This document shows positions 9,497 through 26,960 of a stretch of 48,499 nt of DNA, piece by piece (within the stretch, counting starts at the first letter, position 1; each line of letters begins with the position of its first letter). Under the pieces are notes generated by a model, which made no database searches, was not told the DNA's origin, and saw nothing but the letters and a program-made list of their open reading frames with translations. Position numbers and translations under genes: made by a program. Where the stretch lies: NCBI GenBank assembly GCA_043827025.1, contig JBDRPL010000030.1, forward strand, positions 1-48,499, written 5' to 3'. The stretch is from Candidatus Micrarchaeota archaeon. Its GTDB lineage: Archaea > Micrarchaeota > Micrarchaeia > Anstonellales > Bilamarchaeaceae.

Positions 9497-9883
9497 ATGC
9501 AAATAGAAAAACTGAAGCTAGACGAAAAAGGGCGCATTGTGCTTCCCGCGAAATACAGGGATTACCTTGGGTTGGAATCTGGCGATTCTTTATTTGCGTC
9601 TCTTGATGAAAAAAATAAAAGTATAATCCTATCGATACATTCAGATTCTGATACCTATCTTTTGAGCATAGGGATGGGAGATGCGCCAGGAACGCTTGCA
9701 AAACTTGCAAAGGTTCTGGTAGACAATGAAGTTGATCTGATATCAACAGAATCCCATTCTACCAACAGAACAAAAAGCGCAGTCTGGAGAGTCATATGCA
9801 AACTTGATAAAAAGAAAATAACAAAGATAGAAAAGGAATTGAAGAAAGAAGGGGCTGTTTCTGTAGAGGTTAGGGCGGATTAA
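9497..9883 (+). CDS. AbrB/MraZ-like DNA-binding domain fused to an ACT domain (putative amino-acid-responsive regulator)
   Basis: KLDEKGRIVLPAKYRDYLGLESGD followed by DAPGTLAKLAKVL...VDLIS. Confidence 0.8.
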   Translation: MQIEKLKLDEKGRIVLPAKYRDYLGLESGDSLFASLDEKNKSIILSIHSDSDTYLLSIGMGDAPGTLAKLAKVLVDNEVDLISTESHSTNRTKSAVWRVICKLDKKKITKIEKELKKEGAVSVEVRAD

Positions 9884-10551
9884 CCTTCAAACCTCAGATC
9901 AGCATGTGATGGGACAATGATTATGTTTGACCAAGTTGCCCATTCCTCCATTTTTCTCAATTTAGAATCTGTTTTATGGTCCCGTACAGCCGTGCAGTCT
10001 TCTGGAATTATCAATCCATAATTAGCTTGAGATAAGGTCATAACTGCCCCCTTGAAGCAATTGTCAGTCGTGAATCCAACAAGAAGAATTCGGCTTCCAT
10101 CCCCTAACCATTGAATCAAGCCATTCGGTTTTCCACCGAAATGCCCTGTATGTTCTGAGGTGTCTTTCTTGAAAATTGGCTCACCACCATGTGGAATGTC
10201 TTCATAGATCTGCACGCGCCAATCAGGAGACGCACTGCCTGACTTTGGATTTGTTACAGAAGAATCAATAACACAAAGCAATGGATCAGGATAATCTGTA
10301 AACTGCCCTTTGGAATAATTTGCCGCAATCCAGCAAATAGGAACATTGTTTGTTCTAAGAGTGTCAACAAGCACAGATATGTTACCCGAAGCTTTCTGGA
10401 TACTGGCGATTCCACGTGTTGGATCGTTCTTCGCAGTATTTCCAAAGGAACCGTCAGGATGACAAAAGTCATTCTGTTTATCCACTACAACCGCACGAAT
10501 TCCCCTTTTGGATAAAGTTAGTGATGTATGTTTCATATTAAACACCTTCAA
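9880..10551 (-). CDS. Isochorismatase/cysteine hydrolase family protein
   Basis: VVVDKQNDFCHPDGS, IFKK, VGFTTDNC, IPEDCTA. Confidence 0.8.
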   Translation of the reverse strand: MKVFNMKHTSLTLSKRGIRAVVVDKQNDFCHPDGSFGNTAKNDPTRGIASIQKASGNISVLVDTLRTNNVPICWIAANYSKGQFTDYPDPLLCVIDSSVTNPKSGSASPDWRVQIYEDIPHGGEPIFKKDTSEHTGHFGGKPNGLIQWLGDGSRILLVGFTTDNCFKGAVMTLSQANYGLIIPEDCTAVRDHKTDSKLRKMEEWATWSNIIIVPSHADLRFEG

Positions 10552-10707
10552 TTATATTGCCACACATTAAGCTCTAGTGGGAATAATGTGGGAATAGGTT
10601 TAAAAACATTTCCATGCGTAATAGAAACAGCGCAAAACTAACAAAACGCTAGACTCAAGACCCGAAAGCCGGGACTAAAAACCGAAAACTGATTGGAGGT
10701 GTGCTAA

Positions 10708-10785
10708 ATGACAGAAACAAAAAATGCAAACGGAAGGGATTTACTTCATCAACCTAACCACACCCATAACACAGAAAAATGCTAG
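10708..10785 (+). promoter_or_regulatory. Putative his leader uORF (MTETKNANGRDLLHQPNHTHNTEKC) overlapping the 5' end of hisD
   Basis: GGAGGTG SD at 10695-10701, 6 nt before ATG 10708; three His codons; TAG at 10783-10785; the hisD frame is +1 relative to it. Confidence 0.5.
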
Positions 10786-12079
10786 GATATATTGCGGCGA
10801 AGAAGCAGAGCTTATTTTCCAAAGACTGAATGCAAGGTCAAATATAGATGTTTCAAAACCAGTGGGCGAACTTCTTGCAGAATTGGATTTGAAAGGATTC
10901 AGGGCAGTTGTTGAACTAACTAAAAAATTCGATAAATTCGATCTTAATCCTGAAAATATTCGAATTGGCAAAGAAGAGATTGCAGAACAAGCCGCTAAAA
11001 TTACTAAGAAACAAAAGGAATCGATTGACGAATCATTTGAACGAGTGTATTCATTCCAAAAAAAGGTTGCCGAATCTATAATACCGATTTGTGAAGAGAA
11101 GGATAGGCGAAACACAAAACTCGTTCCAAGGCCAATCGAGCGAGTCGGAATTTGGATACCTGGAGGATTAGCACCTTTACCCTCATCCTTACTTATGGCA
11201 GGAGCAACTGCAAGAGCTGCTGGAGTCAAGAGCCTAATTGGCATAACTCCCCCAAGAACCGAATTGAATCCTGCCGTTGCTTATATTCTACAAAAACTCG
11301 AAATCAAAGACATGTTCCGGATGGGTGGTGTTCCAGCAATATGGGCAATGGCAAATGGACTTGCGCCATATTTTGAAAAAGTAGATATGGTATGCGGTCC
11401 CGGAAATATGTATGTTGCAGAAGCAAAACGGCAGGTACGCGGACAGGGGAAAGTTGGGATTGATTTAGATGCTGGGCCTAGCGAAGTATTGATTCTGGCA
11501 GATGAAACCGCTAACTCCACATACGTGGCAGCAGACATGCTTGCACAGGCAGAGCACGGACCAACATCCCCAGGAATTCTGATAACTGATTCGGAAAGAA
11601 TTGCCAAAGAAACTCAAGAAGAAATAGGGATACAGCTGACAATGCTGAAAAGAGGGATGGAAACTGAAATTGCAATACAAGAATACGGTGGAATCCTACT
11701 TGTAAGGGATTTTGCCGAAGCGCTAAACTTGGCAAACCAATATGCTTCAGAGCACTTGGAGATATTCTGCTCAGATGAAACGCTTGAAAAAATACGTGGA
11801 TCACTTCCACCTGCAGGAGCTGTTTTCATAAGAACTGGCGAGGCATTCGCAGACTATGGATTCACAGGTGGAAACCACATACTTCCAACAGGAGGAAGTG
11901 CAAGATTCTCATCAGGGCTTTCTGCGCTTAGCTTCATCACTTGGCAATACCAGGAAGAAATGTCAGAGGGTGAGCAGAAAAAAGCAGCAGAAGGAACAGG
12001 CATTTTTGCAGATATAGAAGGATTGGAAGCACACGCAAATGCTGCAAGGATAAGGGATATTGAAAGTAAAGACAAATAG
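10724..12079 (+). CDS. hisD: Histidinol dehydrogenase
   Basis: VGIWIPGG, GPGNMYVAEAK, GIDLDAGPSE, DMLAQAEH, YASEHLE, GGNHILPTGGSARFSSGL, EGLEAHA. Confidence 0.95.
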   Translation: MQTEGIYFINLTTPITQKNARIYCGEEAELIFQRLNARSNIDVSKPVGELLAELDLKGFRAVVELTKKFDKFDLNPENIRIGKEEIAEQAAKITKKQKESIDESFERVYSFQKKVAESIIPICEEKDRRNTKLVPRPIERVGIWIPGGLAPLPSSLLMAGATARAAGVKSLIGITPPRTELNPAVAYILQKLEIKDMFRMGGVPAIWAMANGLAPYFEKVDMVCGPGNMYVAEAKRQVRGQGKVGIDLDAGPSEVLILADETANSTYVAADMLAQAEHGPTSPGILITDSERIAKETQEEIGIQLTMLKRGMETEIAIQEYGGILLVRDFAEALNLANQYASEHLEIFCSDETLEKIRGSLPPAGAVFIRTGEAFADYGFTGGNHILPTGGSARFSSGLSALSFITWQYQEEMSEGEQKKAAEGTGIFADIEGLEAHANAARIRDIESKDK

Positions 12080-12088
12080 GTGGAAAGA

Positions 12089-13795
12089 ATGGATAAAATA
12101 GCAAATAGCATTAGAAAAGAGATTCAAGAAATGTCGCCATATGCTGGCGGAGAAGTCATTGATATAGAAGTAAAACTGAACCAAAACGAATCCCCGTTCA
12201 ATCTACCAAAGAAGATAATTGAAAAGATAAAGCAGAAGATGGATTCAATAAAATTCAATAGATATAACGAAGGGTCCTTGAAAAGGCTCAGGGAACTGAC
12301 TGCCAAGAAGTTCAATGTTGATGCAAACCAGATAATCTATGGCTGCGGAATAGATGAATTGCTTTATTATCTAACAATGGCTGTTGTAGACAAGGGCAAC
12401 AAGATAGTTCGGCCAGTGCCAAGCTTTGGAATGTACAGGATATGCTCAAAGGTTTTTGGAGCAAACGACACACCAGTAATGCTGGACAAGAATTTTGAAT
12501 TGACTGAAGAATTCGTAAAAGAAAGCAAGGATGCGAAGCTGACATTCATCTGCAGGCCGAACAGCCAGACTGCAAACTCCTGGGACAAGAAAACTATTGA
12601 AAAGATAGTGAAAGAAACTTCGGGGATAGTTTGCATTGACGAGGCATACGCAGAATTTGCAAATGATGACTGCATGGATCTTCTGAAATACGACAATGTA
12701 GTGATAATGAGGACCTTCTCAAAGGCATATCTTGCAGCAGGGTTACGGCTTGGTTATGCAATTGGAAACAAAAGAATGATAGAGTTAATGAATAGGGTCA
12801 GATTGCCTTGGAATGTGAATGTTGTTTCACAGGCAATTGGGGAGATAATACTTGAAAACGAAGAAATATTCCAGGAAAGATTGGATAGGATAAAGGAGAA
12901 TAGAAGCAAACTAATTGAAGAAATGAAGAAAATTGTGAAAGTACTGCCAACTGAAACAAATTTCATTTCTTTTGAAGTTAAAAATCCAAAACAGATATGT
13001 GCTGAATTGAAAACAAGAGGAGTTCTGATACGAGACATAAGTAAGTATCCAATGCTTGAGAATTTCCTACGGGTGAATGTAGGCACAAATGAAGAAAACA
13101 AAAAGTTCATTGAAACATTAAAATCAATATTAGCTGGAAGAAATACCAAACTTAATGCAATAATCTTCGACATAGATGGTGTCCTAGTAGATGTTTCCAA
13201 ATCTTACAGGGAAGCAATAAAGTTGACTGTTGAAAAGTTCAGCGGAAGAAAGCCAAGCGATGAAGAGATTGAAGCTGTGAAGAAAAAACCAAACTCAAAC
13301 AACGATTGGGTTGTTACCTATGCACTTGCAACAGATTTCAAGAGAGACCTTTCGAAGATAGATAGAAATGATGGCGAATATTTGAAGATGAAGGCGCAAT
13401 TCCAGGAATACTATTTGGGCGGATTGATTGATAATGAGGAACTGTTGATTAAGCCCGAGAGTTTCAAAAAACTGGAAGCAAGAGGAATCAGAGTTGGAGT
13501 TGTGACCTCACGTCCAAGATACGAAGCACTCTATGTTTTGAAAAGAATTGGAAAATTCAATGAAGAAATATTTGATGAAGAGCTTGTGGTTGCGCAGGAA
13601 GACTGCGATGAGGAAAAACCATCGCCAAAGCCAATCAGAAAAGTGCTTGAAAGAATGAAGATCAAAGCTGGAGATGCAACATATATTGGAGACACCATCA
13701 ACGACAAACTGGCTGCCAACATGGCAGAAGTAATGTACGAAGAAGTAAACTCAGAACAAAATGTGAATGACATTCTAAGGAGGTTGTTGAAATGA
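12089..13795 (+). CDS. hisC: Histidinol-phosphate aminotransferase fused to a C-terminal HAD phosphatase (putative histidinol-phosphatase)
   Basis: KLNQNESPF, IDEAYAEF, RTFSKAY.AAGLRLGY; then IIFDIDGVLVDVSKSY, VTSRP, KPSP, YIGDTINDK. Confidence 0.92.
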   Translation: MDKIANSIRKEIQEMSPYAGGEVIDIEVKLNQNESPFNLPKKIIEKIKQKMDSIKFNRYNEGSLKRLRELTAKKFNVDANQIIYGCGIDELLYYLTMAVVDKGNKIVRPVPSFGMYRICSKVFGANDTPVMLDKNFELTEEFVKESKDAKLTFICRPNSQTANSWDKKTIEKIVKETSGIVCIDEAYAEFANDDCMDLLKYDNVVIMRTFSKAYLAAGLRLGYAIGNKRMIELMNRVRLPWNVNVVSQAIGEIILENEEIFQERLDRIKENRSKLIEEMKKIVKVLPTETNFISFEVKNPKQICAELKTRGVLIRDISKYPMLENFLRVNVGTNEENKKFIETLKSILAGRNTKLNAIIFDIDGVLVDVSKSYREAIKLTVEKFSGRKPSDEEIEAVKKKPNSNNDWVVTYALATDFKRDLSKIDRNDGEYLKMKAQFQEYYLGGLIDNEELLIKPESFKKLEARGIRVGVVTSRPRYEALYVLKRIGKFNEEIFDEELVVAQEDCDEEKPSPKPIRKVLERMKIKAGDATYIGDTINDKLAANMAEVMYEEVNSEQNVNDILRRLLK

Positions 13796-14415
13796 GAAAG
13801 GCTACTGAAAAAAGAGAGACAAGGGAAACGCAGATTACTGTGGAAATTGACCTTGACGGAACAGGAAAATCCGGAATAAATACAGGGATCGGATTCTTTG
13901 ACCACATGCTCACTGCGCTTTCCAGGTATTCCATGATTGACATGAAAATAGATGCAAAAGGCGATCTTGAAACAGGAACACATCACACCATTGAGGATGT
14001 TGGCATAGTACTAGGAAGCGCAATTGCAAAGGCACTTGGCGAGAAAAGAGGCATTAATCGTGCTGGATTCTTCGAATTTAAGTACATGATGGACGATGCT
14101 ATAGCTGAATCCATGATCGACCTTTCCGGAAGGGGAAGGCTGATATTCGAAGACAAGAATGGCGACCCGCTCAAGTACAGCTGTGAAGTCGTTGGAGCGC
14201 CAAACGGAGGATTTGCATCTGAAGACGTGAAGGAGTTCTTCTGGGCAATGGCAAGCAACATGAAAGCTAATATTGCAATTCGATTGACAACGGCAGGAAA
14301 TAGCCACCACGAAGTCGAAGCAACTTTCAAAGCATTCGGAAAGGCATTGCGCATGGCCTGTGAATACGATTCAAAATCAAAGGGCGAGGTGCCAAGCACA
14401 AAGGGAGTAATCTAA
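13792..14415 (+). CDS. hisB: Imidazoleglycerol-phosphate dehydratase
   Basis: RETRETQI, TGIGFFDHML, HHTIEDVGI, NSHHEVEATFKAFG, VPSTKG. Confidence 0.96.
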   Translation: MRKATEKRETRETQITVEIDLDGTGKSGINTGIGFFDHMLTALSRYSMIDMKIDAKGDLETGTHHTIEDVGIVLGSAIAKALGEKRGINRAGFFEFKYMMDDAIAESMIDLSGRGRLIFEDKNGDPLKYSCEVVGAPNGGFASEDVKEFFWAMASNMKANIAIRLTTAGNSHHEVEATFKAFGKALRMACEYDSKSKGEVPSTKGVI

Positions 14416-14443
14416 AGAGAAACGAAATTTACAGGTGATAAAT

Positions 14444-15250
14444 ATGAAAATAGCGATACCAAACAAGGGAAGATTATACGATAAGACAGTTGAACTGCTG
14501 GAATTGACTGGAATCAAAGTGCCAAAAAATGAAAGGAAATTGATTGCAAGCACGAACATCGAAGATATCAAGATAATATTTGCAAGGGCTTTGGACATTC
14601 CTTGGTATGTTGAAAGCAAGGCGGCTGATGTAGGCATAACCGGCGAGGACATGATAATGGAAAGCGGGGCAGATGTTGAAAAGCTGTTGAAACTGAATTT
14701 TGGAAGCTGCAGGATTGCACTTGCAAGCCAGAATGGAAAGAAAGATAGAATTGCAACAAAGCTTCCGAATATTGCGAAAAAATACTTTCCAAATGCCACA
14801 ATCATCAATATGAATGGAGGATGTGAAGCTGCACCAAAGCTGGGAATCTCAGATGCAATAGTGGATCAAGTAAGTAGCGGAGATACACTTAACGCGAATA
14901 ATCTGAATATTGATCGAATACTGTTCGAATCATCAATTTATTTGATCGGAAATTCGCAGAGCAAAGATGATGAAAAAGTCGAAGAATTGAAGCTGGGATT
15001 GGAAGGTGTGCTAACTGCAGAGGAAAAGAGATACATAATGTACAATGTCACAAGCGACAAGGACCTGAAAACAGCTGTGAAAGTCACGCCGGCAATGGAA
15101 AGCCCAACTGTTCTGAAACTGGCAAAGGAAGGCGAATATTCTGTGCATTCTGTTGTTGATGTGAAAGAATTGATGCCTGCAATCCGAAAGATCAAGGAGG
15201 CTGGAGGAAAGGACATACTTGTATTAAACATGTCTCGAGTAGTGTCCTGA
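14444..15250 (+). CDS. hisG: ATP phosphoribosyltransferase (long form)
   Basis: KIAIPNKGRL, ARALDIP, DVGITGED, DAIVDQVSSGDTL, C-terminal regulatory domain SPTV. Confidence 0.95.
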   Translation: MKIAIPNKGRLYDKTVELLELTGIKVPKNERKLIASTNIEDIKIIFARALDIPWYVESKAADVGITGEDMIMESGADVEKLLKLNFGSCRIALASQNGKKDRIATKLPNIAKKYFPNATIINMNGGCEAAPKLGISDAIVDQVSSGDTLNANNLNIDRILFESSIYLIGNSQSKDDEKVEELKLGLEGVLTAEEKRYIMYNVTSDKDLKTAVKVTPAMESPTVLKLAKEGEYSVHSVVDVKELMPAIRKIKEAGGKDILVLNMSRVVS

Positions 15251-15273
15251 CGAAATCTAGATCAGAATTTGAT

Positions 15274-15864
15274 GTGATGAAAATGATAGGGATCATTGAT
15301 TACGGAGCTGGGAATGCTGCAAGTGTAAAAAACGCGCTTGACAAGCTTGGTGTTGGATCAGTGATAACCAGCAACATAGAAAAAATGGAAAAATGCGATT
15401 CACTAATATTACCAGGGGTCGGAGCTTTTGGGAATGCTATGGATTCGTTGAAGGGCAAAATCCAAATGATAAATGATTGGAAGAAACCATTTCTTGGCAT
15501 ATGTCTTGGGATGCAGGTACTATTTGAAAGAAGCGATGAGAATCCAGAAGCAGAAGGACTGGGCATCATTAAGGGAAGCGTGAGGAAATTCAATGGAATT
15601 CGGACTCCGCAAATAGGTTGGAACAAAATCGAAAATGTAAAAGGACAGTTATTCGACAAAGAAGGTTTCGTGTATTTCGTCAACTCATATTATTGCAAAC
15701 CGGATGCAAACGAAAATGTAACGACCAGCACAACAAATTACGGAATTGAATTCGTTTCATCTGTGCGGAAGAACAATTTCTATGGTGTGCAGTTCCACCC
15801 TGAAAAGAGCAGTGAGTTCGGTTTGAAGATTCTTGAAAGATTTGCGAGGTTGTCCAAATGCTAG
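15274..15864 (+). CDS. hisH: Imidazole glycerol phosphate synthase glutaminase subunit
   Basis: IDYGAGN, LPGVGAF, LGICLGMQ, GVQFHPEKS. Confidence 0.96.
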   Translation: MMKMIGIIDYGAGNAASVKNALDKLGVGSVITSNIEKMEKCDSLILPGVGAFGNAMDSLKGKIQMINDWKKPFLGICLGMQVLFERSDENPEAEGLGIIKGSVRKFNGIRTPQIGWNKIENVKGQLFDKEGFVYFVNSYYCKPDANENVTTSTTNYGIEFVSSVRKNNFYGVQFHPEKSSEFGLKILERFARLSKC

Positions 15865-16526
15865 TGATACCTGCAATCGACCTGCTTGACGGCAAATGCG
15901 TGCGCCTTGTGCAAGGCAAAAGAGAGCTGTGCACCGTTTACTCTGATGATCCAATCAAAACAATTGAACAGTTCAAGAAAGACGGTGCAAAACTAGTCCA
16001 CGTTGTTGATCTTAATGGGGCGTTCGAAGGCAGCATGAAGAACTTCGAAATTATTGCAAAACTAGCTGCAATTGTTGAGATAGAGGTGGGTGGAGGAGTG
16101 CGAACAAAGGAAAGGATTGACCAGCTAAAGAGTATTGGAGTAAACAGAATAATCGTTGGGACAAACCTGGATGAACTGAAAAAATACGGAGTTATCGGAG
16201 GATTGGATTTCAAAGACGGAAAGCTTGCAACAAATGGATGGATAAAGAACAAAGAAATCGAAATTGGCGAACTGCTTGAAGGAATGAAAGAGGTCATTGT
16301 CACAGATGTTAAAACAGATGGCATGTTACAAGGACCAAATCTGGAACTCATCAAACAAATCAAATCATTTGGAATTGAAGTAATTGCATCAGGTGGGATC
16401 CGAAGCCTGGATGATCTAATGGAACTGAAAAAAATAGGGGTTAATGGCACCATAATCGGAAAGGCGATTTACGAAGGAAAAATAAACCTGAAGGAGGCGA
16501 TTCAAAAGTGTTGGCTAAGCGCATAA
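15858..16526 (+). CDS. hisA: ProFAR isomerase
   Basis: IPAIDLLDGKCVRLVQG, HVVDLNGA, EVGGGVR, DGMLQGPN, IASGGI. Confidence 0.95.
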   Translation: MLVIPAIDLLDGKCVRLVQGKRELCTVYSDDPIKTIEQFKKDGAKLVHVVDLNGAFEGSMKNFEIIAKLAAIVEIEVGGGVRTKERIDQLKSIGVNRIIVGTNLDELKKYGVIGGLDFKDGKLATNGWIKNKEIEIGELLEGMKEVIVTDVKTDGMLQGPNLELIKQIKSFGIEVIASGGIRSLDDLMELKKIGVNGTIIGKAIYEGKINLKEAIQKCWLSA

Positions 16527-17263
16527 TTCCTTGCCTGGACATGGCAGATGGGCGAGTGGTAAAAGGAACTAACTTCATCGACCTAAGGGATGCCGGAGAT
16601 GCAGTTGAACTTGCCAAATATTATTATGAAAATGGTGCGGATGAACTTTGCTTCCTAGACATAACAGCAACAGTTGAAACCCGAGAACCAATCTATGAGA
16701 TGATCAAAAAGGTTGCAAAGGAGATATTCATTCCATTTTCAGTAGGCGGAGGCATAAAAACAGTTGAAGATGCTGAAAGGATATTGAAGTGCGGGGCTGA
16801 GAAAATTGTAATCGGAAGTGCTGCAGTAAGGAATCCGAATCTGATACAAAAGCTAGCAAATAAGTTTGGAAGCCAGGCAGTTGTAATATCTATTGACGCC
16901 AAAAGAAATGGAATGGGGTGGAACCAATTCATAAACGGTGGGAGAGTTAATAGTGAAATAGATACGATTGAATTCGCCAAGACGATGGAGCAGTTTGGCG
17001 CAGGCGAGATATTGCTCAATTCGATTGACAAGGATGGAACCAAAAAAGGGTTTGATATTGAATTGTGCAATGCAGTATGCAAAGCAGTTAATATTCCAGT
17101 GATTGCCTCAAGCGGAGCCAAAAACGTTGGCAGTTTCGTGGAAGTTTTCCAGAAGACGGATGTTAATGCCGCATTGGCAGCAAGCATATTCCACTTCGGA
17201 GAAGTACGAATTGGAGATTTGAAAAATAAACTAAAGGAAAAAGGAGTTGAGATACGTGATTAG
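16508..17263 (+). CDS. hisF: Imidazole glycerol phosphate synthase cyclase subunit
   Basis: LAKRIIPCLD, VVKGTNF, GADELCFLDIT, GAGEILLNSIDKDGT, AALAASIFH. Confidence 0.97.
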   Translation: MLAKRIIPCLDMADGRVVKGTNFIDLRDAGDAVELAKYYYENGADELCFLDITATVETREPIYEMIKKVAKEIFIPFSVGGGIKTVEDAERILKCGAEKIVIGSAAVRNPNLIQKLANKFGSQAVVISIDAKRNGMGWNQFINGGRVNSEIDTIEFAKTMEQFGAGEILLNSIDKDGTKKGFDIELCNAVCKAVNIPVIASSGAKNVGSFVEVFQKTDVNAALAASIFHFGEVRIGDLKNKLKEKGVEIRD

Positions 17264-17831
17264 ATTCAACAAAAATGGCCTTGTGCCAATAATAATTCAG
17301 GATGCGAATACAAAACAAGTACTTTCATTGTTCTATGCGAACGAAGCATCAATCCAAAAAATGAAAGAAACTGGGTTTGTCTATAGATATTCCAGAAGCA
17401 AGGGAAAAGTAATGAAAAAGGGGGGGGAATCAGGAAACGTGCAGAAAGTAGTTGAAATAATTGAGGATTGTGATTCTGACGCACTGCTTGTCTTGGTTGA
17501 GCCAAGAGGGCCCGCTTGCCACAAGAATACTACCTCCTGTTTTGAGGATTCGGTTTTCGCATCGCCAATTTTGGAAAGACTAGGACAAATAATTGAAGAA
17601 AGAAAAAAGAATCCAAAAGAGGGCAGCTACACTTGCAAGTTGCTTGCCGATAACGAATTACTTAAATCAAAGCTAATGGAAGAGCTAGACGAACTGATAA
17701 ACTTCAAAGACAAAGATAATCTAGCCTGGGAAGCTGCAGATTTGATATATTTCATCATGGTTTTTATTAAGAAGAACAATAGAAATATCAAGGATGTTGA
17801 AAAAGAGCTTGAAAAGAGAATGCTGAAGTAG
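17256..17831 (+). CDS. hisIE: Bifunctional phosphoribosyl-AMP cyclohydrolase / phosphoribosyl-ATP pyrophosphatase
   Basis: GLVPIIIQD, KGGESGN, DCDSDALL, GPACH...SCF; then GSYT, EE...E, WEAADLIY. Confidence 0.93.
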   Translation: MIRFNKNGLVPIIIQDANTKQVLSLFYANEASIQKMKETGFVYRYSRSKGKVMKKGGESGNVQKVVEIIEDCDSDALLVLVEPRGPACHKNTTSCFEDSVFASPILERLGQIIEERKKNPKEGSYTCKLLADNELLKSKLMEELDELINFKDKDNLAWEAADLIYFIMVFIKKNNRNIKDVEKELEKRMLK

Positions 17832-25648: not shown

Positions 25649-25691
25649 AAACAAATATTCATAAGCTCTTTTTTCCTAGTATTCGATAGAA

Positions 25692-26960
25692 GTGATACTG
25701 ATGAAACTTACACCCAAAGGAATGAGGGACTTTCTCCCAGATGATATGATACTTCGTGAACAGGTTATCGAGACCATCAAGATGATTTATAGGAAGTATG
25801 GTTTCGTTCCACTGGAAACCCCTGTGATGGAATATCTTAATACTCTTAAGTCAAAGGCAGGGGAAGAAGTCGAAAAGCAGATCTTCGTTCTCGAAGGTAG
25901 AGAGTATGGCCTGAGATTCGACTTAACGGTTCCGCTTGCACGAGTAGCTGCAACAAATGCATTCACAAAACCATTCAAGAGATATTGCATCTCAAGAGTA
26001 TGGAGGCACGAAGAACCTCAAAAAGGAAGATTCAGGGAATTCTGGCAGAGTGATATTGACACAATTGGAAGTGAATCCATGAAGGCTGATGCCGAAATTC
26101 TAAGGTGTGCACATGAGGTTGTGACAACCCTTGGGTTCGACAAGCCAAGGATACTCATAAACAACAGGAAGATAATGAATGGCCTTGCCAAGAAACTCGG
26201 AGTAGGAGAAAAGATTGATGAACTATTGAGGATATTGGACAAAATGGATAAGGTCGGCAAGGAAGGGGTAAAGAAACATCTTGCAGAGCACTTTGACGAG
26301 AAAAGGATAAACGAAGTGTTCTCGCTCATAAGCCTAACTGGAACTAATAAGCAGAAAATCGAATCAGCAAAAAGGCTAAGTGAAGATGGGGCAAAGGAAC
26401 TTGAAGAAATAATCGCACTTTTGCCAGATGTTCCAGTTGAAATAGATCTTTCGCTCGTAAGAGGTTTAGGATATTACACTGGCCCAGTATTTGAAATAAA
26501 ACTAAGCGATGAAATTGGTTCAGTTGCAGGCGGAGGGAGATATGATCATCTGCTTGAGAAATACGGCCAAAAGGATTGTGCTACAGGCATTTCAATAGGA
26601 ATAGAACGGATATTATACCTATTGAATGAAAGGATAAAGAAAAGGGGAAAACAATCAAAAAAGACGTTTACTCAAGTGTTTGTTGCATGCGTGAAACCTG
26701 AATTTTATGATGAAGTTGTAAAGATAGCTAATGAAATACGCAAAGGAAATGTCGATGTGGAAACAGACTTGAACAACAGAAACCTCAGAAAGCAATTGGA
26801 ATATGTGAATGTAATGGGTATTCCCTATGTAATTGTGGTTGGGGAAAAGGAAGTGAAATCAAAGAAAGGGAAAATTAGGAATATGGAAAGCGGCGAAGAA
26901 AGAGAAGTCGAGCTTTACACCCACTTGATGATGCCCAAGGGAAACAAGAATGATGATTAG
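25692..26960 (+). CDS. hisS: Histidine--tRNA ligase
   Basis: PKGMRDF, LRFDLTVPLAR, GRFREFWQSD, LVRGLGYYTG, GGGRYD, GISIGIER. Confidence 0.97.
   Translation: MILMKLTPKGMRDFLPDDMILREQVIETIKMIYRKYGFVPLETPVMEYLNTLKSKAGEEVEKQIFVLEGREYGLRFDLTVPLARVAATNAFTKPFKRYCISRVWRHEEPQKGRFREFWQSDIDTIGSESMKADAEILRCAHEVVTTLGFDKPRILINNRKIMNGLAKKLGVGEKIDELLRILDKMDKVGKEGVKKHLAEHFDEKRINEVFSLISLTGTNKQKIESAKRLSEDGAKELEEIIALLPDVPVEIDLSLVRGLGYYTGPVFEIKLSDEIGSVAGGGRYDHLLEKYGQKDCATGISIGIERILYLLNERIKKRGKQSKKTFTQVFVACVKPEFYDEVVKIANEIRKGNVDVETDLNNRNLRKQLEYVNVMGIPYVIVVGEKEVKSKKGKIRNMESGEEREVELYTHLMMPKGNKNDD

Follow-up and report, generated by a model that had tools for sequence, protein, structure and literature searches.

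The question raised by the his operon of a Candidatus Micrarchaeota archaeon is how ribosomes reach its head gene, hisD, given that the strong Shine-Dalgarno (SD) sequence upstream of this gene precedes an ATG placed in another reading frame. The operon lies in a stretch of 48,499 nucleotides (contig JBDRPL010000030.1, hereafter the window), where Pfam searches identified hisD as the first gene of a full set of his genes. It had been predicted from the letters of the window that histidine starvation shifts ribosomes by +1 at a CUU-CAU pair into the hisD frame (the original prediction); this proposal is strongly supported by conservation, from which we infer both the shift and its dependence on histidine. 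Our conclusion is that a programmed, histidine-responsive +1 ribosomal frameshift probably controls the operon, and that in this archaeon and in many of its relatives the head his gene seems to be reached mainly through a +1 slip at a histidine codon.

The leader ORF that starts at ATG 10708 encodes the peptide MTETKNANGRDLLHQPNHTHNTEKC and ends at a TAG codon (10783-10785), whereas the hisD frame is +1 relative to it and open from 10712. The SD, ATG 10708, the 25 codons, the stop, the A6 run at 10719-10724, ATG 10724 and the phase of hisD were all confirmed on the sequence as first described. For ATG 10708 the SD is predicted to pair with the anti-SD at −13.2 kcal/mol, versus −0.6 kcal/mol for ATG 10724; these energies were calculated with the 16S rRNA 3’ end of G048, a genome of the same order; this 3’ end was not found in the host genome and was recovered from 1 of 81 genomes of the order (G048). 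It had also been proposed that HisD-like sequence begins only near 10780, and in agreement with this the alignment with the HisD of the best relative begins at residue 18, i.e. near 10775-10780; the Pfam domain Histidinol_dh spans residues 39-444 (both numbered from ATG 10724), and the best-named HisD homologs belong to Ca. Micrarchaeota. In P0002, a homolog with 85% identity, the initial methionine was called at the place equivalent to ATG 10724, and this codon is a possible weak bypass route without a shift in this genome. The shifted HisD product has 456 residues, i.e. 443 preceded by 13 from the leader, so that leader codons 1-13 would supply its N-terminus. The features of the region are collected in Table 1.

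Table 1. Position of the features found in the his operon region of the window, with the evidence or remark that accompanies each one
Feature	Position	Strand	Evidence or remark
AbrB/MraZ-type DNA-binding domain plus ACT domain	9497..9883	+	Pfam MazE/MraZ/ACT, weak, E about 1e-6
Direct repeat of GTGGGAA with period 11, immediately 5’ of the TATA box	10577..10594	+	candidate operator
TATA-like box TTTAAAAA of the putative his operon promoter	10599..10606	+	sequence
Initiation SD GGAGGTG for ATG 10708	10695..10701	+	−13.2 kcal/mol versus anti-SD
Leader ORF, zero frame, 25 codons	10708..10785	+	sequence
In-frame ATG of the hisD frame, without usable SD	10724..10726	+	−0.6 kcal/mol
Internal SD-like stimulator AGGGAT, 3 nt 5’ of the P-site codon	10735..10740	+	prfB spacing
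E-site codon TTA	10741..10743	+	
Predicted shift site CTT CAT	10744..10749	+	conservation
hisD, +1 frame after the predicted shift	10748..12079	+	PF00815, E 1e-114
Two further zero-frame His codons	10759..10767	+	not conserved
Rest of operon: hisC-HAD fusion, hisB, hisG, hisH, hisA, hisF, hisIE	12080..17831	+	Pfam

The leader carries zero-frame histidine codons at 10747, 10759 and 10765, and the proposed sensor is a single site, AGG GAT TTA CTT CAT (10735-10749), that includes the first of them; the other two are probably incidental or a backup. At this site the peptidyl-tRNA-Leu would re-pair from CUU to UUC (10745-10747), and ATC (10748-10750) would then be the next codon. The gene for tRNA-Leu(GAG) was found in the host genome, and by base-pairing rules this tRNA meets UUC with one first-position G:U pair. 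A −2 slip was considered and dropped because the tRNA-Leu would then sit on UAC here. The predicted pairing of the internal SD is weak at this site (−3.8 to −5.4 kcal/mol with the 16S end from G048), and the internal SD is degenerate in some sites of the relatives. The spacing of 3 nt is that described for stimulators of +1 shifts in the cited part of PMC5009743; likewise, in the cited part of PMC2377451 hungry A-site codons favor +1 shifts, and the fast-release E-site codons of E. coli include UUA and UUG.

Among 81 sites selected by the motif, the P-site codon is CTT in 77 and GTT in 4, the A-site codon is CAT in 34 and CAC in 47, and the commonest E-site codons are TTA (31), CTG (10) and TTG (9). 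In these sites a G-rich consensus spans positions −9 to −4, with G at −8, −7 and −6 in 71, 63 and 74 cases, and it is conserved at the base level: the codon at −3 varies over R, G, K, E, S, W and Q, and arginine at this codon is encoded only by AGG (44) or CGG (4), which argues that the run is kept as bases and not as amino acids. At some sites GTT-CAY (Val) occurs in place of CTT-CAY (G240, G034, G106, G310, G065, G062, G054), where the slip is probably weaker. The 21 bases at 10729-10749 are also shared, in sequencing runs X1 and X3, by hisD-bearing contigs of other organisms of the same samples, where they lie 5’ of hisD.

A strict scan of the 1.3-Mb genome returned 5 matches to the site, and given that only the one described here has a histidine codon, the site is not attributable to chance. 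A loose scan (CTT followed by any codon starting with C or T) gave 149 matches that are mostly meaningless, and a codon-free scan for the same architecture over 1275 ORFs gave four ‘+1’ and five ‘−1’ candidates; neither the strict scan nor the codon-free scan revealed, in this genome, a convincing counterpart of the site for other amino acids. The pair CTT-His is only mildly scarce in the ORFs of the genome (145 of 563 Leu-His pairs, 0.258), that is, no scarcer than CTT-Gln (0.275), so the genome-wide avoidance is not specific for histidine.

The distribution of the element was analyzed in the Micrarchaeota. hisD was found in 16/61, 45/176 and 68/401 genomes of three overlapping samples, which gave 76 genomes for analysis. 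The site is carried by 60 of these, which represent 13 of 19 families, 33 of 46 genera and several orders, and is missing in the other 16. Most head his genes are preceded by an SD-led, out-of-frame leader that runs into the sequence xGG RRT NNN CTT CAY; relative to this leader, the gene lies in the +1 frame. To guard against circularity, a motif-free test was carried out in which the strongest SD-led ATG near each his gene was taken regardless of its frame. From 70 head genes of Micrarchaeota, 29 were in frame, 36 required a +1 change and 5 required a −1 change; an out-of-frame leader equivalent to that of the window was thus observed in 36 of 70 head genes. The first histidine codon follows CTT in all of the 36 leaders that need +1, and none of the 5 that need −1 has a histidine codon. 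For 340 internal his genes, 14 overlapping +1 leaders were detected, none with CTT-His. Within the his genes themselves, only 5 of 952 histidine codons are preceded by CTT, a codon that accounts for 28% of the leucine codons in these genes. The comparison outside the class consisted of 80 bacterial hisD loci only; [CG]TT-CAY was present in the +1-entry frame in 3 of them, and the G-rich AGG context in none.

The original prediction gave weight to three histidine codons in seven and to an analogy with the His-codon leaders of bacterial his operons. The three codons are present here, but the cluster is not conserved: within seven codons, the 41 sites that enter a his gene directly have three histidines in one case, two in 5 and a single one in 35. 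The cluster is thus incidental and peculiar to this genome, a His-rich leader is not what the orthologues share, and the analogy with the hisL attenuator turned out to be wrong. What is conserved is a single CTT-CAY preceded, at a distance of 3 nt, by an SD-like run. Its anatomy, the phase of the frames, their conservation and the identity of the codons were read directly from the sequences.

In some genomes an in-frame start is absent or distant. In the congener G001 the first 70 codons of the gene contain no in-frame start, and in G020 the first one appears only at codon 54; some in-frame start is available in many direct cases. The allele of G236 and G260 is in frame and one base shorter exactly at the site, and these two genomes are tree neighbours of the site-bearing genome G275. 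On a quick hisD tree, which omits the short sequences of G057 and G092, 7 changes are needed to explain the presence of the site, versus 14.6 with shuffled labels. The genomes are thus related, and site counts overstate independence; the pattern agrees better with a single ancient origin, followed by losses and rearrangements, than with multiple origins.

The element occurs in several arrangements, which are chained in many genomes. Direct entry was observed into hisD in 29 genomes, this one included, and into hisG in 15. In 16 genomes the arrangement is coupled only, i.e. the site leads into a spacer frame, and the his gene is provided with a start of its own. Spacers consist of a short AbrB-like ORF, of plain sequence or of a tRNA-His gene. 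The next start was defined independently for 30 spacer sites; the stop of the +1 frame lies no more than 11 nt from it in 28 of them, versus 0/30 and 1/30 for the other two frames. In six genomes (G216, G356, G352, G273, G281, G180) the +1 frame crosses a tRNA-His gene called by ARAGORN and ends on or near the next start. Tandem sites are 19, 25 or 28 nt apart, a spacing of 3n+1 in 13 of 13 pairs, which means that the second site is in frame only after a shift at the first. tRNA-His genes within or adjoining the head of a his operon were seen at L153, L154, L157, L167, L177, L180 and L182, and further site-like sequences in the +1-entry frame of hisF were noted in G103 (L325) and G072 (L187).

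The tandem arrangement was also searched for in metagenomes, with two sites 19 nt apart and both A-site codons left free. At least 121 matches in at least 119 loci were obtained. Among the matches listed, 21 are SD-led, and 15 of these have histidine at both positions, use CAT as well as CAC, and open, once both shifts are made, into a frame of 50 codons or more; in the remaining 6 SD-led matches listed this frame does not exceed 24 codons. Several matches are near-duplicates, some of the 15 included. Three of the 15 His+His loci listed reach hisD within the flank; several others are too short, or other genes come first. Glutamine occurs at both free positions in L221, L237, L252, L279, L280 and L300, which are not SD-led and have short frames; these recurrent matches probably represent a repeat, or a conserved gene read in antisense.

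The proposed mechanism can be described as follows. Initiation would occur at the strong SD and ATG 10708, and ribosomes would arrive at CUU-CAU, codons 13-14 of the leader. When charged tRNA-His is plentiful, CAU would be read and translation would end at 10783, so that a peptide of 25 aa is made instead of HisD. Under a shortage of His-tRNA, the A site would remain unoccupied at CAU; AGGGAU, 3 nt upstream, would pair with the 16S rRNA, tRNA-Leu(GAG) would slip from CUU to UUC, and translation would continue in the hisD frame. In the relatives, the portable cassette would enter hisD, hisG, or a spacer frame that ends on the next start codon, and two or three chained sites would sharpen the response. 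The downstream genes would follow through translational coupling and perhaps through polarity, by FttA-type termination on untranslated RNA. The cited part of PMC11616081 describes FttA termination on U-rich RNA, and presents only as a hypothesis the idea that a coupled ribosome excludes this factor. Slipping, its tracking of His-tRNA and the response of the downstream genes are what we infer from the conserved features. That the site is a functional +1 shift site is very probable, and it is likely that it reports the supply of histidine: any C or U after CUU would be enough for slippage, yet histidine is invariant and both of its synonyms are used, which points to histidine as the signal. For the Micrarchaeota in general, there is a good chance that a portable cassette (SD-ATG ... 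xGG RRT NNN CTT CAY) serves as histidine control by converting a shortage of the charged tRNA into a change of frame; two or three chained sites would act as a multiplicative switch, and the shifted ribosomes would cross spacer ORFs and even a tRNA-His gene, switching on the whole operon.

Other explanations of the same sequences have to be weighed. The simplest, already named in the original prediction, is a one-base assembly error in the A6 run that splits an ordinary hisD into two frames; the loss of one base there would indeed join ATG 10708 to hisD. The contigs of the probable source run cover 10468-12300 with no gap and no other letter, and no indel is listed in any of four runs; independent cover of the A6 run comes from one shallow contig of another study (250 nt, 10483-10732, depth 2), which has no gap and gives weak support, as it ends 8 nt past the run. 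Since the congener G001 and 36 head genes from several orders share this phase, and the contigs over the region have no gaps, this alternative is refuted for all practical purposes. A frame restored at the RNA level, by polymerase slippage or by editing that drops one base, could likewise make use of the A6 run of this genome, and we regard it as very improbable: the conserved site has no homopolymer, an A run is not common to the leaders, the site logo lacks the conserved long homopolymer at the frame junction that is typical of transcriptional slippage, and the SD spacing together with the constraints on the P- and A-site codons point to the ribosome.

It could also be thought that no shift takes place: as a uORF for pausing or attenuation (hisL-like, or acting through its nascent peptide), the leader would then control access to an in-frame start, for instance ATG 10724, or would control transcription. 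The in-frame ATG of the window and of P0002 and the fact that the leader peptide often contains R-D/G-L-L-H agree with this possibility, which is nonetheless quite unlikely because it leaves unexplained the fixed +1 phase, the invariant CTT in spite of the modest share of this codon among the leucine codons of these genes, the 3n+1 spacing of the tandem sites, the +1-specific coupling, and the genes without in-frame starts. In addition, the peptide varies while the G-rich bases stay, and the interval 10625-10800 is predicted to fold weakly (−22.4 kcal/mol for its 176 nt), no terminator/antiterminator pair being evident in it. Finally, the +1 shift could be real but constitutive, a fixed throttle on hisD or hisG in which histidine is present only because CAY is slow in these cells. 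This idea agrees with the site heading non-His genes in a few genomes; we consider it unlikely, given that re-pairing needs only C or U after CUU and yet histidine is found in 36 of 36 leaders and also in 15 of 15 SD-led long-frame tandem matches among those listed, with both CAT (34) and CAC (47) in use, and that the site heads the histidine pathway, whose proteins avoid histidine.

A histidine-responsive shift would have the operon translated under histidine shortage, and its codon usage is as expected for this. Including hisD, histidine represents 14 of 2363 codons (0.59%) versus 1.74% genome-wide, and CAC is used for 12 of these 14 codons versus 32% genome-wide. hisC is fused to a gene for a HAD-family hydrolase (12080-13795), and the resulting 571-aa protein has no histidine; the HAD part is a probable histidinol-phosphate phosphatase. 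This fusion also accounts for an apparent class of operons headed by hisB, which was discarded as an artefact of the HAD domain fused to hisC. The CAC share of the his genes is 92% in site-bearing and 84% in site-less genomes, and other NAC/NAT pairs are near 50%. On the same contig, hisS is located about 8 kb downstream (25689-26288), and the strict scan detected no site 5’ of it. A second hisC-like gene and a hisH/hisF-like pair were noted outside the operon on contig C29 of G000.

Upstream of the leader, the element at 10599..10606 resembles the archaeal promoter consensus, and we take it to be a candidate TATA box. The double-box GTGGGAA pattern next to it has a single match in the whole genome. 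Of 59 genomes with the site, 36 have a double box 5’ of the head his gene and 55 a single box, and none of 59 control windows inside hisD has a double box; the double box is also present in 5 of 13 genomes without the site. The product of the AbrB/MraZ-ACT gene is a candidate transcription regulator of the operon, from which it is separated by an isochorismatase-family gene on the opposite strand (9880-10551). Homologs were detected in 53 of 251 genomes of the class, and often adjoin the repeat and the site. Together, the repeat and this gene suggest a putative second layer of control, at the level of transcription. In G049, G055 and G059 an AbrB-ACT homolog and the repeat precede unrelated genes.

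The site is not restricted to his genes. In 5 of 15 regions around AbrB-ACT homologs (G251, G065, G062, G054, G234) it leads into a non-His ORF that no his cluster follows; in G023 the ORF that it enters is short and lies upstream of hisS. Two of the non-His ORFs entered from the site encode radical SAM proteins; for one captured ORF, the ESM Atlas provided only a weak lead (CDPS or DIT1-like). In some metagenome loci, non-His ORFs lie between the site and hisS or hisD. These ORFs imply that the cassette is either a relic there or not specific for the histidine pathway. Further loci with the site before non-His genes are L351, L358 and L262 (radical SAM), L201, L209 and L225 (an unknown protein and a racemase), and L360, L368, L371 and L269; hisS comes after in L209 and L269, and hisD in L201.

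With respect to known systems, the enterobacterial hisL leader is a ribosome-mediated attenuator in which histidine codons report the charging of tRNA-His for the his operon. The element described here differs in having one His codon instead of a run (a single one within seven codons in 35 of the 41 direct sites), and in its output, which would be a change of frame; alternative terminator and antiterminator hairpins were not found, only a weak single fold with no match to an Rfam His leader. The Rfam scan of 10300-11000 gave no family near its gathering score, only three sub-threshold chance matches, and no T-box riboswitch (Stem I specifier loop, T-box antiterminator) was matched in this interval. 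If the mechanism is correct, it would be an undescribed way of sensing amino-acid shortage, with a sensor of about 15 nt, and a third design beside attenuators and T-boxes. A prior description of the element was not found in the open-access literature, which was the scope of the search, and the main text of PMC3711429 does not mention hisD, hisG or histidine. With regard to useful starvation-specific proteins made by hungry-codon shifts, the cited part of a 2016 review states that ‘no examples are known’ (PMC5009743); the archaeal frameshifts listed in that part are −1 cases and one viral +1 case. The his leader would be such an example, as well as a cellular archaeal +1 recoding event and a case of anti-SD scanning by elongating archaeal ribosomes. 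It would also follow that many Micrarchaeota genomes have wrongly called N-termini for HisD and HisG.

Several +1 shifts share part of this logic, as described in the cited sections of PMC5009743. The yeast Ty1, ABP140 and EST3 sites (CUU_AGG_C, CUU_AGU_U) also involve slippage on CUU at a slow A-site sense codon; in contrast, their ratio is set by a rare tRNA, they have no SD stimulator, and amino-acid feedback is not described in those sections. In the antizyme a metabolite level, that of polyamines, tunes a +1 shift within a feedback circuit, but the system is eukaryotic, has a stop as its A-site codon along with other stimulators, senses polyamines, and makes an inhibitor. In the leader ORFs ermCL (ketolide) and pheL, ribosomes that shift continue into the spacer and the next gene is affected; ermCL responds to a drug, and the pheL shift is judged incidental to attenuation. 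The closest likeness is with prfB, the gene of bacterial release factor 2, whose shift signal is CTT_TGA_C with an upstream SD (PMC3711429, in the part cited). Common to both are CUU as the P-site codon together with first-position G:U re-pairing (cited parts of PMC5009743 and PMC3711429), here with CUU positioned for +1 re-pairing to UUY in 36 of 36 motif-free leaders; the SD-like run 3 nt 5’ of the shift codon, whose pairing is weak in our case; a short zero-frame product; the need of a shift for the full protein; and the feedback logic. The two differ in that prfB has an A-site stop codon and is autoregulated through the release factor, whereas here the A-site codon is CAT or CAC, a histidine sense codon, the gene is hisD and the signal would be charged tRNA-His; the his element is also found in an archaeal host, at the head of a biosynthetic operon, with tandem sites and coupling through spacer frames. 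The chemistry of the proposed slip is prfB-like, and its novelty is the use as feedback control of an amino-acid pathway.
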